DNA of 64,000 nucleotides from an uncultured delta proteobacterium (lineage in GTDB: Bacteria; Myxococcota_A; UBA9160; SMWR01): contig CAWHTE010000002.1 in NCBI GenBank assembly GCA_963832165.1, positions 160,001-224,000 on the forward strand, written 5' to 3'. Below the pieces are notes generated by a model. It saw only the letters and a list, made by a program, of their open reading frames with translations, ran no database searches and was not told the DNA's origin. Made by a program: the position numbers and the translations under genes. Positions 4,714 to 47,309 of the stretch are shown here, in pieces (position 1 is the stretch's first letter; the number at the start of each line of letters is the position of its first letter).

Positions 4714-5035
4714 GTGACCACGAAGTGGAAGAGGCGCGGTACATCGATCGCGGCGACCGCCTGGATCGCGGTGTGCGCGCTACCTCCATGTCGCGTGGCC
4801 GAGCCTCGCCGCGCTGCTCGAGACGCTCCCCATGCCGCCGGCGATGCAGTGGCTGCCCGGCGTTCCCCGGAGCGCCTTCCTCGCGCTGGGCGCGCTCGCG
4901 TTGCTCGGGCTCACGATCAAGGACCGATGGCTGCGCGCGCCGCTGGCGCTCGTCGTCGACGCCGTGATCGGAGCCCCCGCGTTCGCGGTGATCGCGTTCC
5001 TGCTCCAACCGTTCCTGATTCCCGTAGATTGGTAG
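4714..5035 (+). CDS. Small membrane protein, apparently frameshifted near 4780
   Basis: The hydrophobic N-terminus (MTTKWKRRGTSIAATAWIAVCA) continues in another frame as YLHVAWPSLAALLETLPMPPAMQW...FLIPVDW, giving about three TM segments. Confidence 0.45.
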
Positions 5036-5129
5036 GGCGGGAGGAGCCGAAGGCGGATCCCGCCTTTGGCGTTGCGGGGAGAGCTTCTGGCGGCGGGATC
5101 CGCTCGCTTCGCTCGCTACTCCCGCCCTA
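5033..5129. repeat. Long imperfect inverted repeat filling a convergent intergenic gap (REP-like / bidirectional terminator)
   Basis: TAGGGCGGGAG (5033-5043) pairs with CTCCCGCCCTA (5119-5129). GCGGATCCCGCC (5053-5064) pairs with GGCGGGATCCGC (5092-5103). Confidence 0.85.
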
Positions 5130-6947
5130 CGGCAGCGCGATCGCGTAGGCGATGGCGAAGCGCGGCGATGCGGCGGCTTCGTGCGGGCCGCCGGCGGGAT
5201 CGACCGTGGCCGCGAGCACGCGGCCGTGCTCCCAGGGTCCTTTGCGCTCGAGGCGGTGGCCGCGCGCTTCGAGCGCGCGCAGCACCGCGGGGTCGAAGCG
5301 CGACTCGACCGAGACGACGCCCGGGCGCGCGTGGCGCGGGTAGAACGAGCTCGGCATGTGCTCGCTGTGCGCGGTGGGCGCGTCGATCGCGGCCTGCAGG
5401 TCGCGCTCGCCACGCGCCGCGAGCCGCAGGAAGAACTGCGAGGTCCACTGGTCCTGCTGATCGCCGCCGGGCGTGCCGAACGCGAGCCAGCGGCCATCGG
5501 CGAGCTGCGCGAGCGAGGGCGAGAGCGTGGTGCGCGGTCGTTTCCCGGGCGCGAGCGCGTTCGGGTGATCGGGGTCGAGCGACGCCATCTGAAGCCGTGT
5601 CCCGAGCGGGAAGCCGAGCTCGGGTACGACCGGCGAGGTCATGATCCAGCCGCCGCTCGGTGTCGCCGACACCGCATTGCCCTCGGCATCGACGGCTACA
5701 CACTGCGTGGTGTCGGTCCGGCCGCCCTTCCGATGGCCTCCGCTCTCCGGCTCGCTGCGCGAAGCCTGCGCGGCGAGTGCTCCGGGCTCGGCCGGCACCA
5801 GCGCGGAATCCGCTTCGAAGACGATCGGCCAGCCCGCGGGCAGCCGCCCGAGTCCGGGCCGCAGCTCGAACGAGGCTTTCTCCGGGTCGACGAGCGCGCG
5901 GCGCTGTGCGGCGTAGTCGCGCGAGAGCAGCGTCTCGATCGGCACGTCCGCGAAGCGCGGATCGCCGTAGCACGCGTCGCGGTCGGCGAACGCAAGCTTG
6001 GCGGTCTCGAGCCAGAGGTGGAGCGCGTCGGCTCCGCCCGGATCGAGCGCGCCGAGGTCGAAGCCCTCGAGCAGACGAAGCTGCTGCAGGAACACCGGCC
6101 CCTGACCCCACGGGCCCGTCTTCCACACGCGCGCGCCGCGGTAGTCGACCGAGAGCGGATCCTCGGTCGCGCCCGCATAGCCCGCGAGGTCGGCTGCGCA
6201 GATCAAGCCCGCGTGCTTCTCGCCGCTCGCGTCGCGCACGGGCTTGCGCGCGAAGCGGTCGATCGCCTCCGCGCCGGCGCCGCGGTAGAACGCATCGCGC
6301 GCGGCGCGGATTCCCGCCTCGCGCGTTCCGCCCGCGGCGCGCTCCGCTTCGCATAGCGACGCGATCCAGTGCGCGAGCGGCGGGTTGGTCTGGCGCTCGC
6401 CGACCGCGCGCACAGGCAGATAGATCGCAGCGCTCGTGGGCCAGGAGCGCTCGAAGTGCGGTGCGATCAGGTCGATCAGGTCGCGCAGGAACGGGTACAT
6501 CGGGAACCCGCGCTCGGCGAGCGCGCGCGCGGGCGCGATCACGTCGGCGAGCCGGCGCGTGCCGAACTCCTCGAGCAGGCGGCACCACGCGTCGAGCGCC
6601 GCGGGCACGCAGGCCGAGACGAATCCATCGGGCGGCAGGAGGTCGAAGCCCTCCGTGCGCACGCGCTCGATCGTCGCTGCAGCGGGCGCCGGGCCCTGGC
6701 CCGAGATCGCGAACACACGATCGCGTCGCGAATCGCGCACGAGGATCGGCACTTCGCCGCCGGGGCCGTTCTGGGTCGGCTCGAGCACCCAGAGCGCGAA
6801 GCCCATGGCACATGCCGCATCGGCGGCGTTGCCGCCATTCGCGAGCTGTTCCGCGCCGATCTGCGCCGCGAGGTGGTGACCCGCGGCAACGGCACCGCCG
6901 AAACCGCGGACGGTGGGTCGCGTGGTGGTCACGCGGGCAGTATGCAT
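5127..6947 (-). CDS. Gamma-glutamyltransferase family protein
   Basis: GGNAADAA, catalytic Thr in DTTQC, PGKRPRTTLSP, GTPGGDQQDQ. Confidence 0.93.
   Translation of the reverse strand: MHTARVTTTRPTVRGFGGAVAAGHHLAAQIGAEQLANGGNAADAACAMGFALWVLEPTQNGPGGEVPILVRDSRRDRVFAISGQGPAPAAATIERVRTEGFDLLPPDGFVSACVPAALDAWCRLLEEFGTRRLADVIAPARALAERGFPMYPFLRDLIDLIAPHFERSWPTSAAIYLPVRAVGERQTNPPLAHWIASLCEAERAAGGTREAGIRAARDAFYRGAGAEAIDRFARKPVRDASGEKHAGLICAADLAGYAGATEDPLSVDYRGARVWKTGPWGQGPVFLQQLRLLEGFDLGALDPGGADALHLWLETAKLAFADRDACYGDPRFADVPIETLLSRDYAAQRRALVDPEKASFELRPGLGRLPAGWPIVFEADSALVPAEPGALAAQASRSEPESGGHRKGGRTDTTQCVAVDAEGNAVSATPSGGWIMTSPVVPELGFPLGTRLQMASLDPDHPNALAPGKRPRTTLSPSLAQLADGRWLAFGTPGGDQQDQWTSQFFLRLAARGERDLQAAIDAPTAHSEHMPSSFYPRHARPGVVSVESRFDPAVLRALEARGHRLERKGPWEHGRVLAATVDPAGGPHEAAASPRFAIAYAIALP
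5731..5769 (-). repeat. Degenerate in-frame copy of the GNA mini-hairpin element inside the GGT gene
   Basis: cgatggcctccgctc---tccggctcgctgcgcg aligns to the copy at 46785-46826 with a 3-bp gap. Encodes QASRSEPESGGHR. Confidence 0.65.
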
Positions 6948-12468: not shown

Positions 12469-13509
12469 TCAATTTGCCGCGAGGAGCTCTCCGGCGGCCT
12501 CGATCGCGCGTTCGGGCGCCAGGCGCACCAGGCAGCGCTGATCCTTGATCGGACACACGCTGCGTCCGCACGGACGGCAAGCGACGTCCTCGAACAGCAC
12601 CCGCTGGCGTTCGAGCAGATGGGCGGTGTGGCGCGGATCGGTCGGGCCCATGAGCGTGACGACGGGGCGCCCGAGCGCGACGGCGACGTGCCGCGGGCCC
12701 GTGTCGTTGGTGAGCACGAGCGCCGCGCGCGCGACGATCGCCACGAAGACTTCGAGCGAGGGGTCGGGCTCGAGCAGCACCACGTGCCGTTCCGTCATCG
12801 CCTCGGAAACGCGGCGCGCGATCGCGATCTCCTGGGCGTTCGGCGCGGGCGCCACCACCGGAAGCAGGCCGTGGCGCCGCCGCAGCTCGTCGCAGGCGCG
12901 TGCGAAGTGCTCCGGCGGCCACAGCTTGCTCACGCCATAGGCGGCGCCGGGCGTGACCAGCAGCACCGGATCGCTGCGCCCGACGCCCGCGCGCTCGAGC
13001 AGCGCGTCGGCCCGCGCCTGCGCGTCGTCGTGCACGTGGAGCTCGAGCGCGTCGCCCGCATCGCGCACGCCGAGCGCGCGCACGAGGCGCAGATAGCGCT
13101 CGATCATCGAGATCGCGACGCGCTGCCCGCGCGCGCGCGGCGGATCGATCGCCTGGCTCAGCAGGAAGCGGCGCAGCGGATCGCGCGCGTAGCCGATCCG
13201 GATCGGCACGCGCGCCGCGAACGGGTCGAGCGCGGCGCGCGCCGAATCGGGCAGCAGCAGCGCTGCGTCGAACTGATGGCTGCGCAGCTCGCGCGCGCGC
13301 TCGGCGACGTCGCGCAGCCGCAGCCCGCGCAGCGGCACGAACGCGTCGAAGTTCTGGTTCCCGCGCAGCAGGCCCTCGTGATGCGGCGGCCCGAGCACTG
13401 CGATTTCCGTCTCGGGGAGACCCCGCCGCAGCGCGCGCAGCGCGGGCGTGGCCATCACCGCATCGCCGAGCGGATTCGGAAGCCGCACCAACAGGCGCCG
13501 CATCAGCAA
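12469..13509 (-). CDS. waaF: GT9 glycosyltransferase, LPS heptosyltransferase II-like
   Basis: RLPNPLGDAVMATP, PGAAYGVSKLWP, TNDTGPRHVA, GPTDP, C-terminal CxPC...C. Confidence 0.82.
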   Translation of the reverse strand: MLMRRLLVRLPNPLGDAVMATPALRALRRGLPETEIAVLGPPHHEGLLRGNQNFDAFVPLRGLRLRDVAERARELRSHQFDAALLLPDSARAALDPFAARVPIRIGYARDPLRRFLLSQAIDPPRARGQRVAISMIERYLRLVRALGVRDAGDALELHVHDDAQARADALLERAGVGRSDPVLLVTPGAAYGVSKLWPPEHFARACDELRRRHGLLPVVAPAPNAQEIAIARRVSEAMTERHVVLLEPDPSLEVFVAIVARAALVLTNDTGPRHVAVALGRPVVTLMGPTDPRHTAHLLERQRVLFEDVACRPCGRSVCPIKDQRCLVRLAPERAIEAAGELLAAN

Positions 13510-13530
13510 CGAGGCCGACTCGTCGGCCGA

Positions 13531-13556
13531 CGCGCAGCGAGCCGAAGGCGAGCGGA
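13531..13556 (+). repeat. GNA mini-hairpin element, intergenic copy
   Basis: CGCGCAGCGAGCCGAAGGCGAGCG (13531-13554) is a 24-bp exact match to the reverse complement of the copy at 46788-46826. Confidence 0.85.
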
Positions 13557-13579
13557 AGCGGGCCCCTGCATGGGTGGGC

Positions 13580-30194: not shown

Positions 30195-31685
30195 CTAACG
30201 CCTTAGGACTCCGCGGTTCCTGCCGACCTGGACGGGTGTGCCCGGTCGGCGCGGGTCGTAGAGCACGAAGTCGGTGAGCCGATCGCCGTCGATGTCGCCG
30301 AAGCGGATGCGCCCGCCCGTGTCGAGCGGCTGGCTCGCGTCGAGCTTCTCGTAGCCGGGCCTGTCCCGGCCGAGCCGCACCTCGAGGCGGTCACCCGCGC
30401 CCGAGCCCAGCAGGTCCTTGATCCCGTCGCCGTTCAGGTCGACCTCGAGCGTGGGCACGAAGCCGATCGAGCGGAACGTGTCGAAGCTGAACGGCACGCC
30501 GAGCTTCCAGCGATGCCACGGCTTGGCGTCGAACGGGGAGTGCTCGCCGAAGCGGTAGATCGACACCTCGGCGTCGATCTCGCGCGTCACGAGGATCTCG
30601 ACCACCTCGAGCACGCCCGCGGGAACGCGTGCCTCGATCAGCTCGACGCGTCCGTCGCCGTCGAGATCGATCACCGCGTTGCCCGAGAGCCCGCCCTCGG
30701 CGCGGATCTGCTGGTCGGGCTTGGCGAGATTCCAGCTGCCGCCCCGGTTCAGGTGGATCGACGCCGTGGTCGGCGCGGAGAACGAGAACACGCTGCCCAC
30801 CAGGTGCGAGATCAGGAGATCGAGGCGGTGATCGCCATCGAGGTCGATGGCGTCGACGCGCACGATCCCCGAATTGCGGATGTGGTCTTCTTTCGCGAGC
30901 AGACCGAGCGCGACCTGGCGCGTCGCGCGCTGCGGGAAGTGGCCCTGCGCGTCCTGCAGGAACACGCGCAGCTCGTGGCGATTCGAGCTCACGATGTCGC
31001 CGCGTCCGTCGCCGTCGACGTCGCCCACCGACAAGCGCGGGTGATCGAAGAAGATCTGCACCTCGCTCTCCGCGACGAGAGGTCCGGGACGCCGGGGTGT
31101 GTAGTAATTGGCGCGCGCGCCCACGTCGAGCTTGCCGACCACCTCGCCCGAGGGCGTGAGTACCGTGACGGTGCCGAAGCCGGGCACGAGCAGGCGCGGT
31201 GCGTCCGCGAGGCCGTCGCGCGCGATCCTGAGCCGGTCGATGCCGCGCTCGTCGGTGATCACCCCGATCGTGGGCGCGGGCCCGACCGCGAGATCGCGCG
31301 ACGAGAGCTCGCGGCCCGACAGCGACAGCAGCGTGACGCGGTCGCTCCGCAGAAGCATCAGCTCGGCACCGGGGCGCTCGTCGAGCTCCGAGAGGTCGTA
31401 CGCGGCGGATCCGCTCGGCAGCCGCGTACTCCAGTCGGGCTCGGCGGCGTACGTGCCATCCGGCCGCTGGTAGAACACGTGCAGCGTGCGCCGCTCCTCG
31501 GGCGGCATCCCATCGATGCGCGTGCACAAGAGATCGCCGCGCGCGTCGCCGTCGAGGTCGACGAGGTCCGCCTGCACCACGCGTGCGCCGAGCGCGAACT
31601 TCTGGATCGCGAACGGATCCTCCGCCGCCGCGGGCAGGGCGAGCGCCGCGCTGATCGCCGCGGCCGCGCACAGCCGGCCGATCAT
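30195..31685 (-). CDS. Secreted FG-GAP/VCBS repeat protein
   Basis: Signal peptide and repeated DLDGDxRxDL Ca-binding motifs. ATGA overlap with the upstream gene. Confidence 0.85.
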   Translation of the reverse strand: MIGRLCAAAAISAALALPAAAEDPFAIQKFALGARVVQADLVDLDGDARGDLLCTRIDGMPPEERRTLHVFYQRPDGTYAAEPDWSTRLPSGSAAYDLSELDERPGAELMLLRSDRVTLLSLSGRELSSRDLAVGPAPTIGVITDERGIDRLRIARDGLADAPRLLVPGFGTVTVLTPSGEVVGKLDVGARANYYTPRRPGPLVAESEVQIFFDHPRLSVGDVDGDGRGDIVSSNRHELRVFLQDAQGHFPQRATRQVALGLLAKEDHIRNSGIVRVDAIDLDGDHRLDLLISHLVGSVFSFSAPTTASIHLNRGGSWNLAKPDQQIRAEGGLSGNAVIDLDGDGRVELIEARVPAGVLEVVEILVTREIDAEVSIYRFGEHSPFDAKPWHRWKLGVPFSFDTFRSIGFVPTLEVDLNGDGIKDLLGSGAGDRLEVRLGRDRPGYEKLDASQPLDTGGRIRFGDIDGDRLTDFVLYDPRRPGTPVQVGRNRGVLRR

Positions 31686-32737
31686 CGATCTTCCGGCGGC
31701 AGCCACACCTCGCCGATCGCGAGCGAGCGCACGCGCTCCGGGTCGAGGTGCTCCCGCCCGACGATCTCCGCGAGCTCGCGCGGCGGCAGGTCGGCAGGCT
31801 CGTCGGTGAGATCGAAGGTGCCCCAATGCATCGCGAGCATCGCGCGTGCGCGCAGGTCGCGGTAGGCCTGCACGGCCTCGGCCGGATCCATGTGCTGCCA
31901 ACGCATGAACCAGCGCGGCGCATACGCGCCGATCGGGAGCAGCGCGACGTCGATCGGCCCGAAGCGGCGGCCGAACTCGGCGAAGCCGTGGAAATAGCCC
32001 GTGTCGCCCGCGAAGAAGTAGCGGCGCGCGCCGGAGTCGATCAGCCACGTGCACCAGAGCGATTCGTTGGTTCCGAGATCCGCACGGCGCGACCAGTGCT
32101 GCGACGGCAGGCAGGTGATCGTCCAGCGGCCGCGTTGCGCGCTCTGCCACCAGTCGAGCTCGACGACGTTGGGGCGCTCCCGGTCGCGGAACCAGTCCGC
32201 GAGCCCGAGCGGCACGAACCACTGGACGGTCGCGGGCAGCGCGTCGACGGTGTAGGCGTCGAGGTGGTCGTAGTGGCTGTGGGAGATCACCGCGAACGCG
32301 TCGGGCGGGACCGCCTCGATCGGAACGCCGGGGGGTACGAGCCGCGCCGGGATCAGCGCGCGCGGGCCGAAGTGCGGATCGGTGAGGATCACGTCGGGGC
32401 CGTCGTGGATCGCGAAGGTCGCGTGCCCCACCCAGGTGAAGCTCGCGCTGTGCTCGACCCCGGCGAGGCCGCGGCCGTCGTTCGCGGCGATCGGAACGAC
32501 CGGCGCGCGGCTCTTGTCGTAGGGATTGCGCGAGAACAGCTGCCAGCGCAGGAAGCCCCAGACCGACTTCGGGTCGCTCGACCACGGCGTGAAGAAGCCC
32601 GCGTCTCGATCGCCGTGGGGCGCGTAGAGGGAGCGGGCGTTCTCGGGCGCGTCTTCGGGGGCATCCGCGGTGCGCACCGGGAATGCTGCGAGCAGCGCGA
32701 ACCCCACGGCGGCGCAGGCAAACAGCGAACGCTTCAC
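31682..32737 (-). CDS. MBL-fold metallo-hydrolase (NAPE-PLD/RomA-like), secreted
   Basis: TWVGHAT, LTDP, ISHSHYDHLD, QHWS, FAGDTGY, PIGAYAPRWFM, MHWGTF. Confidence 0.9.
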   Translation of the reverse strand: MKRSLFACAAVGFALLAAFPVRTADAPEDAPENARSLYAPHGDRDAGFFTPWSSDPKSVWGFLRWQLFSRNPYDKSRAPVVPIAANDGRGLAGVEHSASFTWVGHATFAIHDGPDVILTDPHFGPRALIPARLVPPGVPIEAVPPDAFAVISHSHYDHLDAYTVDALPATVQWFVPLGLADWFRDRERPNVVELDWWQSAQRGRWTITCLPSQHWSRRADLGTNESLWCTWLIDSGARRYFFAGDTGYFHGFAEFGRRFGPIDVALLPIGAYAPRWFMRWQHMDPAEAVQAYRDLRARAMLAMHWGTFDLTDEPADLPPRELAEIVGREHLDPERVRSLAIGEVWLPPEDR

Positions 32738-32831
32738 TCCATCTCCACGGACGCGGTGCGGTACATACGGTATCCGGCCCGCGCGCGAGCGTCTTCTCGA
32801 ACGGGCCGGGTACACTCGCGAGCCCGCTTGG

Positions 32832-32870
32832 TGGTCTTCGCTCGCCTGCGGCTCGCTGCGCGCAACTTGC
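32832..32870 (-). repeat. GNA mini-hairpin element, full 39-bp copy abutting the HAD gene RBS
   Basis: 37/39 identical to 46788-46826. Confidence 0.9.
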
Positions 32871-32880
32871 GGAGGTCACA

Positions 32881-33639
32881 GTGCCGATTCGCGCCATCGT
32901 CTTCGATCTGTTCGACACGCTCGTCGACCTGCGCTGGGAGCGCCTGCCGGTCACCGAACACCGCGGGAAGAAGCTGCCCGCGTCGACGCCGGAGCTCCAC
33001 GAGCGTGTGCGCGGCCGCTGCGCCGTCGATCTCGACACGTTCGTGGATGCGATGGTGCAGGGCGATCGCGACTTCGCCGAGTCGCACTACAAGCACGACC
33101 GCGAGGTGCCGACCGAGCTCCGGATGGGAGCCGTGTTGCGCCGGCTGGGGGTCGAGGATCCCGCCCTCGCGCGCGAGCTCACGCTGCTACACATGAATGT
33201 GGTGCGCAGCGGGGTCGAGCTCGTGGCGCACCACGGTGCCGTGCTCGACCGCCTGCGCCAGAACCGGCGCCTCGGGCTGTGCTCGAACTTCAGCCACTCG
33301 GAGACGGCGCTCGCGGTGCTCGAGGACGCCGAGCTCCGCCACCGACTCGATCCGGACGCGCTCGTCGTCTCCGATGCGTTCGGCCTGCGCAAGCCGCGCG
33401 CCGAGATCTTCGCGGAGGTGGTCGCGCGGCTCGGCGCCGCGCCCGAAGAGACGCTCCACATCGGCGATAGTCTGCGCGCCGACGTGGGCGGCGCGGCGAG
33501 CGCGGGTCTGCGCACGGCCTGGATCACGCGGCGCGTCGCCGACCCGAAATCCGCACTCGCCGAGCACGAAGGCCCGCGTCCGGATCACGTGATCGGCGAT
33601 CTCGCGGAGCTGCCCGACCTCTTGACTCAGTTGGGCTGA
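32881..33639 (+). CDS. HAD family hydrolase
   Basis: FDLFDTL, CSN, KP..EIF, HIGDSLRADV. RBS GGAGG. Confidence 0.9.
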   Translation: MPIRAIVFDLFDTLVDLRWERLPVTEHRGKKLPASTPELHERVRGRCAVDLDTFVDAMVQGDRDFAESHYKHDREVPTELRMGAVLRRLGVEDPALARELTLLHMNVVRSGVELVAHHGAVLDRLRQNRRLGLCSNFSHSETALAVLEDAELRHRLDPDALVVSDAFGLRKPRAEIFAEVVARLGAAPEETLHIGDSLRADVGGAASAGLRTAWITRRVADPKSALAEHEGPRPDHVIGDLAELPDLLTQLG

Positions 33640-35612: not shown

Positions 35613-36458
35613 TTAGGGGAGCCCGGCTCCGGGCACCGACACCTCGACGACCTCGATCTTCGCGCTGCGCTTCGCGCGGCAATCCTCCGCCGCGAGGCTC
35701 TCGGAGGTGCACACGAACAGCGTGGTCCGCTTCGGACCCCCGAGCATGCACGCAATCGCCTGCGTGGCGACTCGGATCCGCTCGGTCACCTCGCCACCCT
35801 CGCGCACGCGCAGCACCTCGCCGCTCATCGGAGAGGCCACCCAGATCGCGCCCTCCGCATCGAGGCAGATCCCGTCGGGCACGGCCTTCTCGAGCTGTGC
35901 CCAGACGCGGCGGTTCGAGAGCGAGCCGTCTTCGGCCACGTCGAACGCGGTGAGACGCGAGCCGAACGATTCGCCCACGATCAACGTGCGGCCGTCGGGC
36001 GTGATCACGGTGCCATTCGGGAACGAGAGATCATCCGCGGCGATGCGCACCTGGCCATCCGGTGAGACGAGCGCCATCGCCGTCGTGCGCGGCTTTTCCC
36101 CCTTCGAAAAATCGAAGCCGAAGTTGCCCACGTACGAGCGGCCGCGCGCGTCGGTCACCATGTCGTTGCAGTGATAGGTGGCCACGCGCGAGAGATCGGC
36201 GACTTCGTGGAGCCCATCGGGGTCGAGGCGCAGCAGGCGGCGGTCTCGCATCGATACCACGAGCAGGCGGCCGTCGGGCAGCCAGCCGAGGCCGGAGGGA
36301 TCGTTCTCGACCCGCACGATCTCCTCACAGCGGCCGTCGAGATCGACCGTCTTCACGAGCTGGTCGTGCATGTCGGAGAACCAGAGCTTGCCGTCGCGCC
36401 AGCGCGGGCCCTCGGGAAACGCGAGGCCGTCGAGCAGGACGTCGGTCGTCTTCGCCAT
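35613..36458 (-). CDS. SMP-30/gluconolactonase/LRE family protein
   Basis: FPEGPRW, CNDM, FPNG, PDGICLDAEG. Confidence 0.92.
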   Translation of the reverse strand: MAKTTDVLLDGLAFPEGPRWRDGKLWFSDMHDQLVKTVDLDGRCEEIVRVENDPSGLGWLPDGRLLVVSMRDRRLLRLDPDGLHEVADLSRVATYHCNDMVTDARGRSYVGNFGFDFSKGEKPRTTAMALVSPDGQVRIAADDLSFPNGTVITPDGRTLIVGESFGSRLTAFDVAEDGSLSNRRVWAQLEKAVPDGICLDAEGAIWVASPMSGEVLRVREGGEVTERIRVATQAIACMLGGPKRTTLFVCTSESLAAEDCRAKRSAKIEVVEVSVPGAGLP

Positions 36459-36468
36459 TTTGTTCGAT

Positions 36469-36498
36469 CTCCGCTCGGCTCCGCCTTCGCTGCGCGCG
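36469..36498 (-). repeat. Variant GNA mini-hairpin element overlapping the RBS of the SMP-30 gene
   Basis: Minus strand CGCGCGCAGCGA-A-GGCGGAGCC-GAGCGGAG; central stem swapped (GGC/GCC) with a GGA loop. Confidence 0.7.
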
Positions 36499-36619
36499 AG
36501 GAACCGCTTGCGCGCAGCATACCAGCAGCGAGGCGCCGTGCAGCGACGATCGAATCGGCGATGGGCTCGCCCCGGTCTTCCGGTTACCCTCGCGAGTGAA
36601 GCGTCGAACCGGGGGATGG

Positions 36620-46184: not shown

Positions 46185-47309
46185 CTACGCAATCGGCCCC
46201 GCGACCTTTGGCGCCACCTCCTCGACGAGCATCCGCAGCGACTCCTCCCAGCGTTCCTGCTCTCCGGTGAAGTCGTAGAGCACCACGAGCAGCGTGCCGA
46301 AGCCGCCCGTGTCGTGTTGCAGCTGCTGGAGCTTCTCGGTCACCGTCGCGGGCGAGCCCACGAGCCAGTTGCGGTCGACGAGGTAGTCGACGTTCAGCAT
46401 CGAATCCGGCTCGCTCGGATCGTTCTTGAAGTGCGCGCCCATTCCGCTGCCCACGTAGAACGGCAGCAGGTATTCGCCCCAGCAGCGCCCCATCGCGCCG
46501 TCGCGCGCATATGCGCGCGCGCGCGCATCGGTGTCTGCGATGTACACCTCGCGCACGAGGCGCCACTCGCGGCGGTCGGGCACGCGCCCCGTGCGCGCGG
46601 CGCCGCGCAGCACCGAGTCCCAGTGCGACGCCGTGTGCGCCGGGTTGAGCGAGATCGAGAGCGGGAGGAAGCCGCGCTCGCCCGCGAGCTCGAGCGTCTT
46701 CGAGCCCGCGGAGAGGCCGGCGATGCCGATCGGCGGATGTGGAGTCTGGTAGGGCTTCAGGTGGACGCCCAGGAAATCGAGCCACGATGGTCTTCGCTCG
46801 CCTTCGGCTCGCTGCGCGCGACTTGCAGCGGTGTCGAGCCGTCGCACGTTCCAGAATTCTCCGTCGAAGTCGAATGCTCCCTCCTGCCAGAGCCGCAGCA
46901 TGATCTCGAGCGATTCGAGCGTGCGGCGCCGGTTCTCGCCGCCTTCGGCGTCCATGTCGTAGAGCATGAGGTCGCCCGGCAGCGCGCTGATTCCGACGCC
47001 GAGCATGTAGCGGCCACGTGCCATGTGATCGAGATAGGCGACGCGATGCGCGAGCTCGATCGGGTGGTGATAGGGCAAGAGGTGCGCGCCGGGCGCCAGC
47101 ACGATGTGCTCGGTCTCGCGCAGCGCCTGCGCGATCAGCAGATCGGGAGCTGGGCACGGCTCCCAGGGCGCGGTGAAGTGCTCGCCGATCCAGGCCTCGC
47201 GGAAGCCGAGTCCGTCGAGCAGGCGCAGCTGCGCGAGGTCGTAGTCGATGCCTGCGCGGATCCCGCGCTCGGGCGGGTGCGACGGCATGATGAACGCGCC
47301 GAGTTTCAT
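46185..47309 (-). CDS. LLM-class flavin-dependent monooxygenase (limonene/diketocamphane monooxygenase-like)
   Basis: MPSHPP, WIGEHF..WE, LPYHHP, KPYQ.PHPPI, VGSP.TV. Confidence 0.9.
   Translation of the reverse strand: MKLGAFIMPSHPPERGIRAGIDYDLAQLRLLDGLGFREAWIGEHFTAPWEPCPAPDLLIAQALRETEHIVLAPGAHLLPYHHPIELAHRVAYLDHMARGRYMLGVGISALPGDLMLYDMDAEGGENRRRTLESLEIMLRLWQEGAFDFDGEFWNVRRLDTAASRAQRAEGERRPSWLDFLGVHLKPYQTPHPPIGIAGLSAGSKTLELAGERGFLPLSISLNPAHTASHWDSVLRGAARTGRVPDRREWRLVREVYIADTDARARAYARDGAMGRCWGEYLLPFYVGSGMGAHFKNDPSEPDSMLNVDYLVDRNWLVGSPATVTEKLQQLQHDTGGFGTLLVVLYDFTGEQERWEESLRMLVEEVAPKVAGPIA
46788..46826 (-). repeat. GNA mini-hairpin element, full 39-bp copy in frame inside the LLM gene
   Basis: Exactly 13 codons, ASRAQRAEGERRP; 37/39 identical to 32832-32870. 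Confidence 0.9.

Follow-up and report, generated by a model that had tools for sequence, protein, structure and literature searches.

A short, class-wide bacterial repeat with a predicted G·A hairpin and its possible modes of spread

What is the short repeat scattered over this stretch of DNA, does it move, and by which enzyme? The case bears on the wider question of how REP-like repeats are spread and what mobilises those that lack a RAYT (CGTC repeats and Rickettsia palindromic elements, RPEs). The window discussed here is the whole stretch of 64,000 nucleotides that was analysed; the genome containing it (G000) measures 5.5 Mb at 70% GC.

Copies in the window and beyond

A first-pass annotation of the window had proposed a repeat of about 39 bp at 32832-32870 and 46788-46826. 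The repeat is real: the identity of 37/39 was verified and both copies lie on the minus strand. Its length was put too short, as the period of the tandem arrays gives 42 nt as the commonest unit; elements measure 42-60 bases (Table 1). The further copies that had been named are present as well, namely a 24-nt exact core at 13531-13554 on the plus strand, a GGC-GGA-GCC variant at 36469 and a degenerate copy placed at 5731-5769. The hairpin at 5033-5129, also counted as a member, had to be taken out: it belongs to another family, being a doublet of GTAG REPs, and only the apical module is common to both.

Table 1. Copies of the repeat and associated features in the window.
Feature	Position	Strand	Remarks
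42-nt unit	32829..32870	-	GCAA foot, G-NNN-C mini first arm, predicted long G·A hairpin, tail
42-nt unit in luciferase-like monooxygenase gene	46785..46826	-	in-frame insertion
Host gene, luciferase-like monooxygenase (PF00296)	46185..47309	-	reading frame intact
Long-first-arm variant	13506..13558	+	antisense, between two minus-strand genes
Variant whose middle stem is swapped (GGC-GGA-GCC), with one additional A	36469..36511	-	sense
Degenerate copy in gamma-glutamyltranspeptidase gene	5730..5769	-	in-frame reading AQASRSEPESGGHRK
Host gene, gamma-glutamyltranspeptidase (PF01019)	5127..6806	-	contains the degenerate copy
GTAG REP inverted doublet (REPIN), outside the repeat family	5032..5130	.	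shares GNA/GA apical module

The first unit sits between divergent genes, in sense relative to a metallo-beta-lactamase-fold gene (31682-32737) and antisense to a HAD gene, 11 nt from the start of the latter at 32881. The variant with the swapped stem lies about 11 nt upstream of the ATG of an SMP-30/gluconolactonase gene at 36458, and the site of the long-first-arm variant is also occupied in the congeneric genome G004. Gene positions in G000 are those of our own gene caller, which wrongly fused some genes. An Rfam search gave no match in the 64-kb window at the gathering score.

That the repeat is abundant genome-wide had been predicted and is borne out. The 26-nt core pattern GCGCAGCGA-NNNGNANNN-GAGCGNAG, allowing at most one mismatch, has 173 matches in G000 (144 exact and 29 with one mismatch), against one single-mismatch match and no exact one in each of three order-5 Markov genomes of equal length. 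With an nhmmer profile, 177 matches reach at least 20 bits in G000 and none does so in the reversed genome.

The exact core is found in 39 of 61 relatives, with copy numbers from 0 to 577; where copies are few they are located in housekeeping operons. A sample of the phylum places the repeat in 29/58 genomes of the class and in 3/243 outside it. Entire families are without it (for instance f10, with 0/18 genomes). A pattern scan listed 80 GTDB records; by hand count of those listed, the title is Myxococcota, Myxococcales or Deltaproteobacteria/delta in 52, uncultured Spirochaetales in 25 and something else in 3. The plasmid collection gave partial, chance-level matches only. In the viral collection two contigs match, apparently representing one phage stretch: they are near-identical (L203/L204) and carry a single copy upstream of what by eye is a terminase-like gene block. 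A phage carrying a copy is a possible vehicle between hosts.

Architecture and predicted fold

The 5' end of the element is sharp. It starts with GCAA, followed by a first hairpin that opens with G, closes with C and varies in length, then by the 26-nt core and a fuzzy tail that loses conservation over about 12 nt. The GCAA-G..C foot is present in 120/130 copies of G000, 23/29 of G004, 25/31 of G028 and 84/95 from GTDB; at random sites it occurs in 179/5000. First arms range from G-NNN-C (5 nt) to more than 40 nt, the long ones mostly with GNA loops. Upstream of GCAA the sequence is near background. There are no terminal inverted repeats: the 5' end is fixed and the 3' end variable and unrelated. 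Nesting occurs in G000, where 16 copies lie within the 5' half of another copy and 3 within the loop of a GTAG REP.

One subfamily, in G028, consists of foot-to-foot doublets of about 200-215 nt with a long imperfect inverted spacer. These are found at C13:70431-97542 and on C4, C20, C22 and C30, clustered between housekeeping genes, and can be regarded as a REPIN-like higher-order form.

To describe the core we number its positions 0-25. Mutual information was computed from a pool of 633 copies, those of G000 together with those in the fetched loci; these copies are not independent, and each covarying pair may go back to few events inherited widely. Two pairs stand out, 10-16 with 0.86 (C-G 403, G-C 219) and 6-20 with 0.34 (C-G 580, T-A 46, the latter count being enriched because 20 T-A loci had been fetched deliberately beforehand). 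The next-highest value among core column pairs is 0.06. The core had been parsed as three tandem mini-hairpins, a reading that finds no support: the pairs 0-6, 1-5, 21-25 and 20-26, on which it depends, have values of at most 0.02, the third mini-hairpin pair G20-C26 is present in just 70/633 copies, and the two pairs that do covary fit one long hairpin. The predicted fold begins with the pair C1-G25 and an internal loop (GCA/GNA); the pairs G5-C21 and C6-G20 come next, then tandem G·A/A·G and a stem of 3 bp with a GNA loop at its tip. Covariation thus supports one long tandem-G·A hairpin after the GCAA-footed first hairpin. The first mini-hairpin may form as an alternative fold, since G0·T6 is able to wobble.

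The compensatory swap of the middle stem and the variable N of the GNA loop were seen correctly at the outset and extend over the 173 G000 copies (stem C-G 121, G-C 46, other 6; loop A 125, C 27, G 15, T 6). The second pair was followed through the class by searching for a base other than C at position 6. T stands there in 143 of the 150 rows listed (out of 842 matches; hand count), and among these 143 rows A20 is found in 117, G20 in 26 and G0 is kept in 141. In five genomes picked for their richness in T6, 278 copies have T6-A20 against 7 in which C6 faces a base other than G. Both forms, C6-G20 and T6-A20, retain pyrimidine-GA-purine on each strand. This swap from C-G to T-A across the tandem G·A block provides comparative evidence that a natural bacterial DNA has been selected for a sheared-G·A hairpin.

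Folding energies are silent on this point. ViennaRNA z-scores range from +0.4 to +1.2 as DNA and from 0.0 to +1.6 as RNA, hence no excess stability is found for either; to our knowledge, the model has no terms for sheared pairs in DNA. The GNA loops and the motifs of tandem G·A lead us to infer a structure that works as DNA and not as RNA. As far as the accessible text of PMC10085684 goes, NMR on a human promoter oligonucleotide shows that in DNA the G·A pairs formed by CGAG blocks are tandem and sheared; the GNA triloop is described there as a stable DNA loop.

The GNA/GA apical module also tops closed stems elsewhere, in the GTAG REPs of G000 and in two IS3-like loci. The latter come from a record titled Longimicrobiaceae (L077:1462-2936, L161), another lineage; in them the core tips a stem of about 15 bp where, on the 5' side, the frame of an IS3-like transposase with HTH_Tnp_1 begins, followed in L077 by rve.

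Insertion sites and orientation

Comparison of congeneric genomes shows the repeat to be mobile. From G004 we fetched 90 loci that surround 100 of its 132 exact copies. They form 86 clusters, of which 75 are syntenic with G000, 7 lack synteny, 3 lie at a contig edge and 1 is too far. At the 75 syntenic sites G000 is empty in 63 cases, filled in 9 and filled in reverse orientation in 3. Together with the covariation this upholds the earlier suggestion of a mobile, non-autonomous element selected for pairing with GNA loops. In four DNA sequencing runs there was no same-strain junction spanning a copy.

Where the empty site lies within G000 coding sequence, the net length of the insertion is divisible by 3 in 17/17 rows (16 distinct sites). 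Judged on the G000 frames, these insertions measure 24 to 159 nt, with 16 in sense and 1 in antisense. In the other 46 empty-site rows the net length is divisible by 3 in 26 (hand count). Over 40 anchored empty sites, the first G of the foot is shared in 27 and the C in 21, against 11 and 12 for the following two bases; one or two 5' bases may therefore derive from the target. No target-site duplication is evident in the 16 coding pairs, in which the divergence of G004 (about 15%) blurs the ends. Nor is there a fixed target of 4-5 bases 5' of the element: the upstream sequence is near background and at most G/GC is shared. In three spacers the element is found in opposite orientations in G004 and G000, for example L051 versus G000:C11:597133 and L067 versus G000:C7:428815, which suggests repeated independent insertion at favoured places.

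We lean towards a reading in which the repeat folds as single-stranded DNA and spreads as a non-autonomous miniature element that a trans-acting HUH-type enzyme cuts and rejoins, and consider this somewhat probable. The polymorphic, class-wide insertion of 42-60 bases is predicted to fold as single-stranded DNA. By analogy with TnpA-REP, the HUH-type enzyme would read the foot and the irregular stem on one strand only. The spread that is seen goes to new sites without clear target duplication, into 42-nt tandem arrays and into apical loops, its own and those of GTAG REPs. For TnpA-REP, the available portion of PMC8266576 reports substrates that are single-stranded and strand-specific, carry a tetranucleotide on the 5' side and have irregularities in the stem.

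Many copies have ended up inside proteins. The copy in the monooxygenase adds a net 15 residues around AASRAQRAEGERRPS when compared to four orthologues without the insert (G004 with 93% identity, G013, G012 and G047); a solved relative (4uwm) shows a similarly long loop at this point, which is neutral as evidence. Altogether 26 G000 copies are internal to called genes. This number is an upper bound, because at least 3 (L522, L523 and L525) of the 20 other host genes that were scanned look fused by the caller. The NCBIfam cut-offs are passed by RadA, PurH and ATP synthase gamma, in each case with a matched span that includes the element, and BirA with the element inside passes its domain model. 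Alignment gives 15 additional residues for RadA (against 5lkm) and about 29 for ATP synthase gamma (against 5dn6). Hundreds of such natural insertions of 13-15 residues chart the tolerant loops of conserved enzymes.

ATP synthase gamma carries an in-frame element in two distant genomes, at G000:C7:395312-396280 (L521) and G043:C1:4886025 (L284). In G000 it occupies approximately residues 205-233, which we take to be the region of the redox insert of chloroplast gamma. Another observation concerns a UvrC-like gene, where an element lies at the start or within in G005 and G003 (L370, L371); REPs have been noted in DNA-repair genes in the part of PMC3733652 available to us.

Orientation is far from random. 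The 168 G000 loci comprise 65 within coding sequence (59 in sense and 6 in antisense), 73 in tandem spacers (52:21), 22 in divergent and 8 in convergent spacers, and the element is in sense in 111 of 138 cases (p=3e-13). The bias is found again in GTDB loci (45:19), metagenome loci (41:11) and G004 (20:2), though not in the small sets of G028 (5:4) and the T-A loci (3:2). Unlike the repeat, the GTAG REPs of G000 are unbiased (31:22 and 8:7), with 15/163 coding and 94/163 convergent. The scarcity of convergent spacers is seen in G000 and G004 and is not general, since 21/97 classified GTDB loci and 30/91 metagenome loci are convergent. Replication strand was considered as a cause of the bias and rejected, as sense copies also prevail on genes against the GC skew (42:13, compared to 69:14 with the skew; the leading-strand assignment is rough because the skew is weak).

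The bias is stronger in coding sequence, and one open sense frame is avoided: the frames reading AQRAEGERR and RSEPKASE are used 25 and 33 times, the arginine-rich third frame 4 times. Both observations point to selection, which would be the main cause of the sense bias. Mean hydropathy is -1.3 to -1.6 for the sense frames and 0 to -0.5 for the antisense frames, computed on one long-arm variant. Copies would thus persist mostly in sense, since read in two of the sense frames they encode loop peptides that are short and hydrophilic, and since a stop codon and a sequence resembling a ribosome-binding site can be supplied by the tail. Part of the bias may come from insertion into the strand exposed by transcription.

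Orientation could also be fixed entirely at insertion if the element entered the displaced non-template strand of bubbles or R-loops. We regard such transcription-coupled targeting as possible but rather doubtful. It would fit a bias that holds irrespective of GC skew and in non-coding tandem spacers, that is lacking in the GTAG REPs of the same genome and that recurs in the GTDB, metagenome and G004 loci; it does not explain why the coding bias exceeds that of the spacers or why one sense frame is avoided, and the G028 and T-A loci are unbiased, with small numbers. If it were correct, the repeat would represent transcription-directed transposition with a tiny cargo, and a potential tool for in-frame insertion.

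A different function is suggested by the position of 76/173 copies, which lie at most 80 nt upstream of a same-strand start. An SD-like word is present in 58 of those 76, compared to 2476/4734 genes, a comparison that is partly circular as words of this kind are favoured by the gene caller. A regulatory RNA or a signal bound by protein, domesticated in operons and acting on mRNA stability or translational coupling, would be expected at such places, but we judge it very unlikely: sites are not kept between congeners, host genes are unrelated, whole families do without the repeat, and neither an RNA folding signal nor an Rfam match was obtained.

Candidate movers and known systems

G000 has 12 Y1 matches, among which one is a true RAYT (NF047646, 200 bits at a cut-off of 80). 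This gene (G000:C4:535324-535848, L205) is flanked by many GTAG REPs and forms a textbook REPtron; the same GTAG REP makes up the doublet at 5032-5130 in the window. Its matches number 110 in G000 (about 110-160 genome-wide), 7 in G002 and at most one elsewhere among the 61 genomes, so the REPtron of G000 was probably acquired recently. A RAYT had been proposed as the mover. However, the sole RAYT of the genome is flanked by GTAG REPs and was not found in most of the repeat-bearing genomes searched: it was detected in 1/61 genomes and the repeat in 39/61. With its REP nearly confined to G000, it offers no explanation for a class-wide repeat. Within one genome this makes a clean contrast between a REP/RAYT pair of the textbook kind and an older repeat, found class-wide, that is indifferent to the pair.

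The remaining 11 matches belong to a multicopy orphan Y1/HUH family present in 15/61 genomes. Its members (L001 and L003-L012 in G000; L206-L235) have about 230 aa and a YVLLN motif, with 3-22 matches per genome that are diverged within genomes. They score below the RAYT and IS200 NCBIfam cut-offs and match none of the Y-motif signatures in the accessible part of PMC6006769. The genes have an AT-rich leader that resembles a promoter; those of G000 often also have a flanking motif of the TTGAGGGAAG type.

That this orphan family moves the repeat in trans, with repeat-rich genomes that lack the family holding relics, seems unlikely to us. Genomes with the gene have a median of 87 repeats and those without it a median of 1, and all five of the richest belong to the former, but seven genomes without the gene hold at least 50 copies and G015 combines 7 gene copies with 0 exact repeats. 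Moreover, the core lies within the locus in 1/12 cases in G000 and 7/30 elsewhere, at variable position; several genes have their own flanking motif, and the related genomes are not independent. Taking any Y1 gene, matches occur in 23/61 genomes, and the repeat is found in 20/23 genomes with Y1 and in 19/38 without. In the incomplete assemblies that make up all searched genomes, a Y1 match is absent from 19/39 repeat-bearing ones, including G005 (99% complete, 73 copies). The search for Y1 genes flanked by the repeat gave none with a copy at a fixed place.

Other enzymes were sought as well. For Y2 (PF04986), the transposase of IS91/Helitron-like rolling-circle elements, no match was obtained in G000, nor in the control genomes. 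GIY-YIG domains number 1-2 per genome; 5/7 lie in long UvrC-looking frames, which we presume to be UvrC, and one is a contig-end fragment. A DUF559 partner was not found, DUF559 itself being present in 1/5 genomes. Clustering of 529 neighbouring proteins yielded common host families only, with no recurring nuclease, and neither Y1 was matched by tblastn. In G000 a copy stands on each side of seven genes, which by eye resemble ordinary host genes.

A more far-reaching version of our reading holds that class-wide mobile DNA of about 42 bases with sheared G·A pairs has a mover outside the Y1/Y2 families, targets the transcription-exposed strand and writes loops of 13-15 residues into housekeeping proteins, RadA and ATP synthase gamma among them. 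We put this forward tentatively and would not bet on it. Transcription-coupled targeting and the orphan Y1 family can both coexist with the preferred reading.

The repeat could also do without a dedicated enzyme, being copied by host repair or replication through template switching at microhomologies of 1-2 bases and through slippage. This is quite improbable in our view. The searches of G000 and its relatives that found no enzyme agree with it, as do the partial G/GC match at the 5' junction, the fuzzy 3' end, the tandem arrays and the self-nested copies; it leaves unexplained both the foot, which is fixed across genomes although the first arms vary from 5 nt to more than 40 nt, and the compensatory changes.

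A retron is a further lead, drawn from the myxobacterial literature. A hairpin copied back by a retron reverse transcriptase, in the manner of msDNA, would account for single-stranded DNA features and for one fixed end only. We give it hardly any credence: among five genomes searched (71-99% complete), PF00078 has no match in G000, G003, G004 and G005, and the single partial match in G028 has no repeat in its locus.

The repeat can be set against known systems, to begin with the GTAG REPs/REPINs and their RAYT. Both are short, high-copy, irregular hairpins with a conserved 5' tetranucleotide foot, polymorphic and in some copies in frame within genes (as described in the available portions of PMC3733652, PMC6006769 and PMC8266576), and they share the apical GNA/GA module. 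The repeat differs in its foot (GCAA, not GT[AG]G), its two hairpins, its lack of a flanking RAYT, its mostly single copies (foot-to-foot doublets being seen as a subfamily in G028), its strand bias and its more frequent location in coding sequence. It is also class-wide, whereas the GTAG REP of G000 has more than one match in 2/61 genomes only.

In-frame insertion in conserved proteins is shared with CGTC REPs and RPEs, and as far as the accessible text of PMC3733652 goes no dedicated transposase is known for CGTC repeats. Our repeat lacks the CGTC tag, has another sequence and a non-canonical stem and, unlike RPEs, resides in a free-living lineage of 70% GC, for which run matches weakly suggest a soil habitat. 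Hairpins beside TnpA-Y1 of subclass 2.6 and class 3, in what is available of PMC6006769, are likewise atypical, high-copy and without a GTAG foot. Theirs is a different foot (CnGA for class 3 in the same source), no such gene flanked by the repeat was found, and the structures were compared by description. With the ends of IS200/IS605 the repeat has in common two hairpins, a strand-specific single-stranded substrate and no clear target duplication. [quoted passage not shown] Terminal inverted repeats, expected of a MITE, are missing.

Overall, the repeat resembles REPs and RPEs in its working, but by its foot and enzyme it falls outside both. No description of it was found in the text of the mostly open-access literature that was searched. 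An unrelated 16-mer family, GCCGCAGCAAGCCAAC, is also over-represented in G000, with 21 copies.
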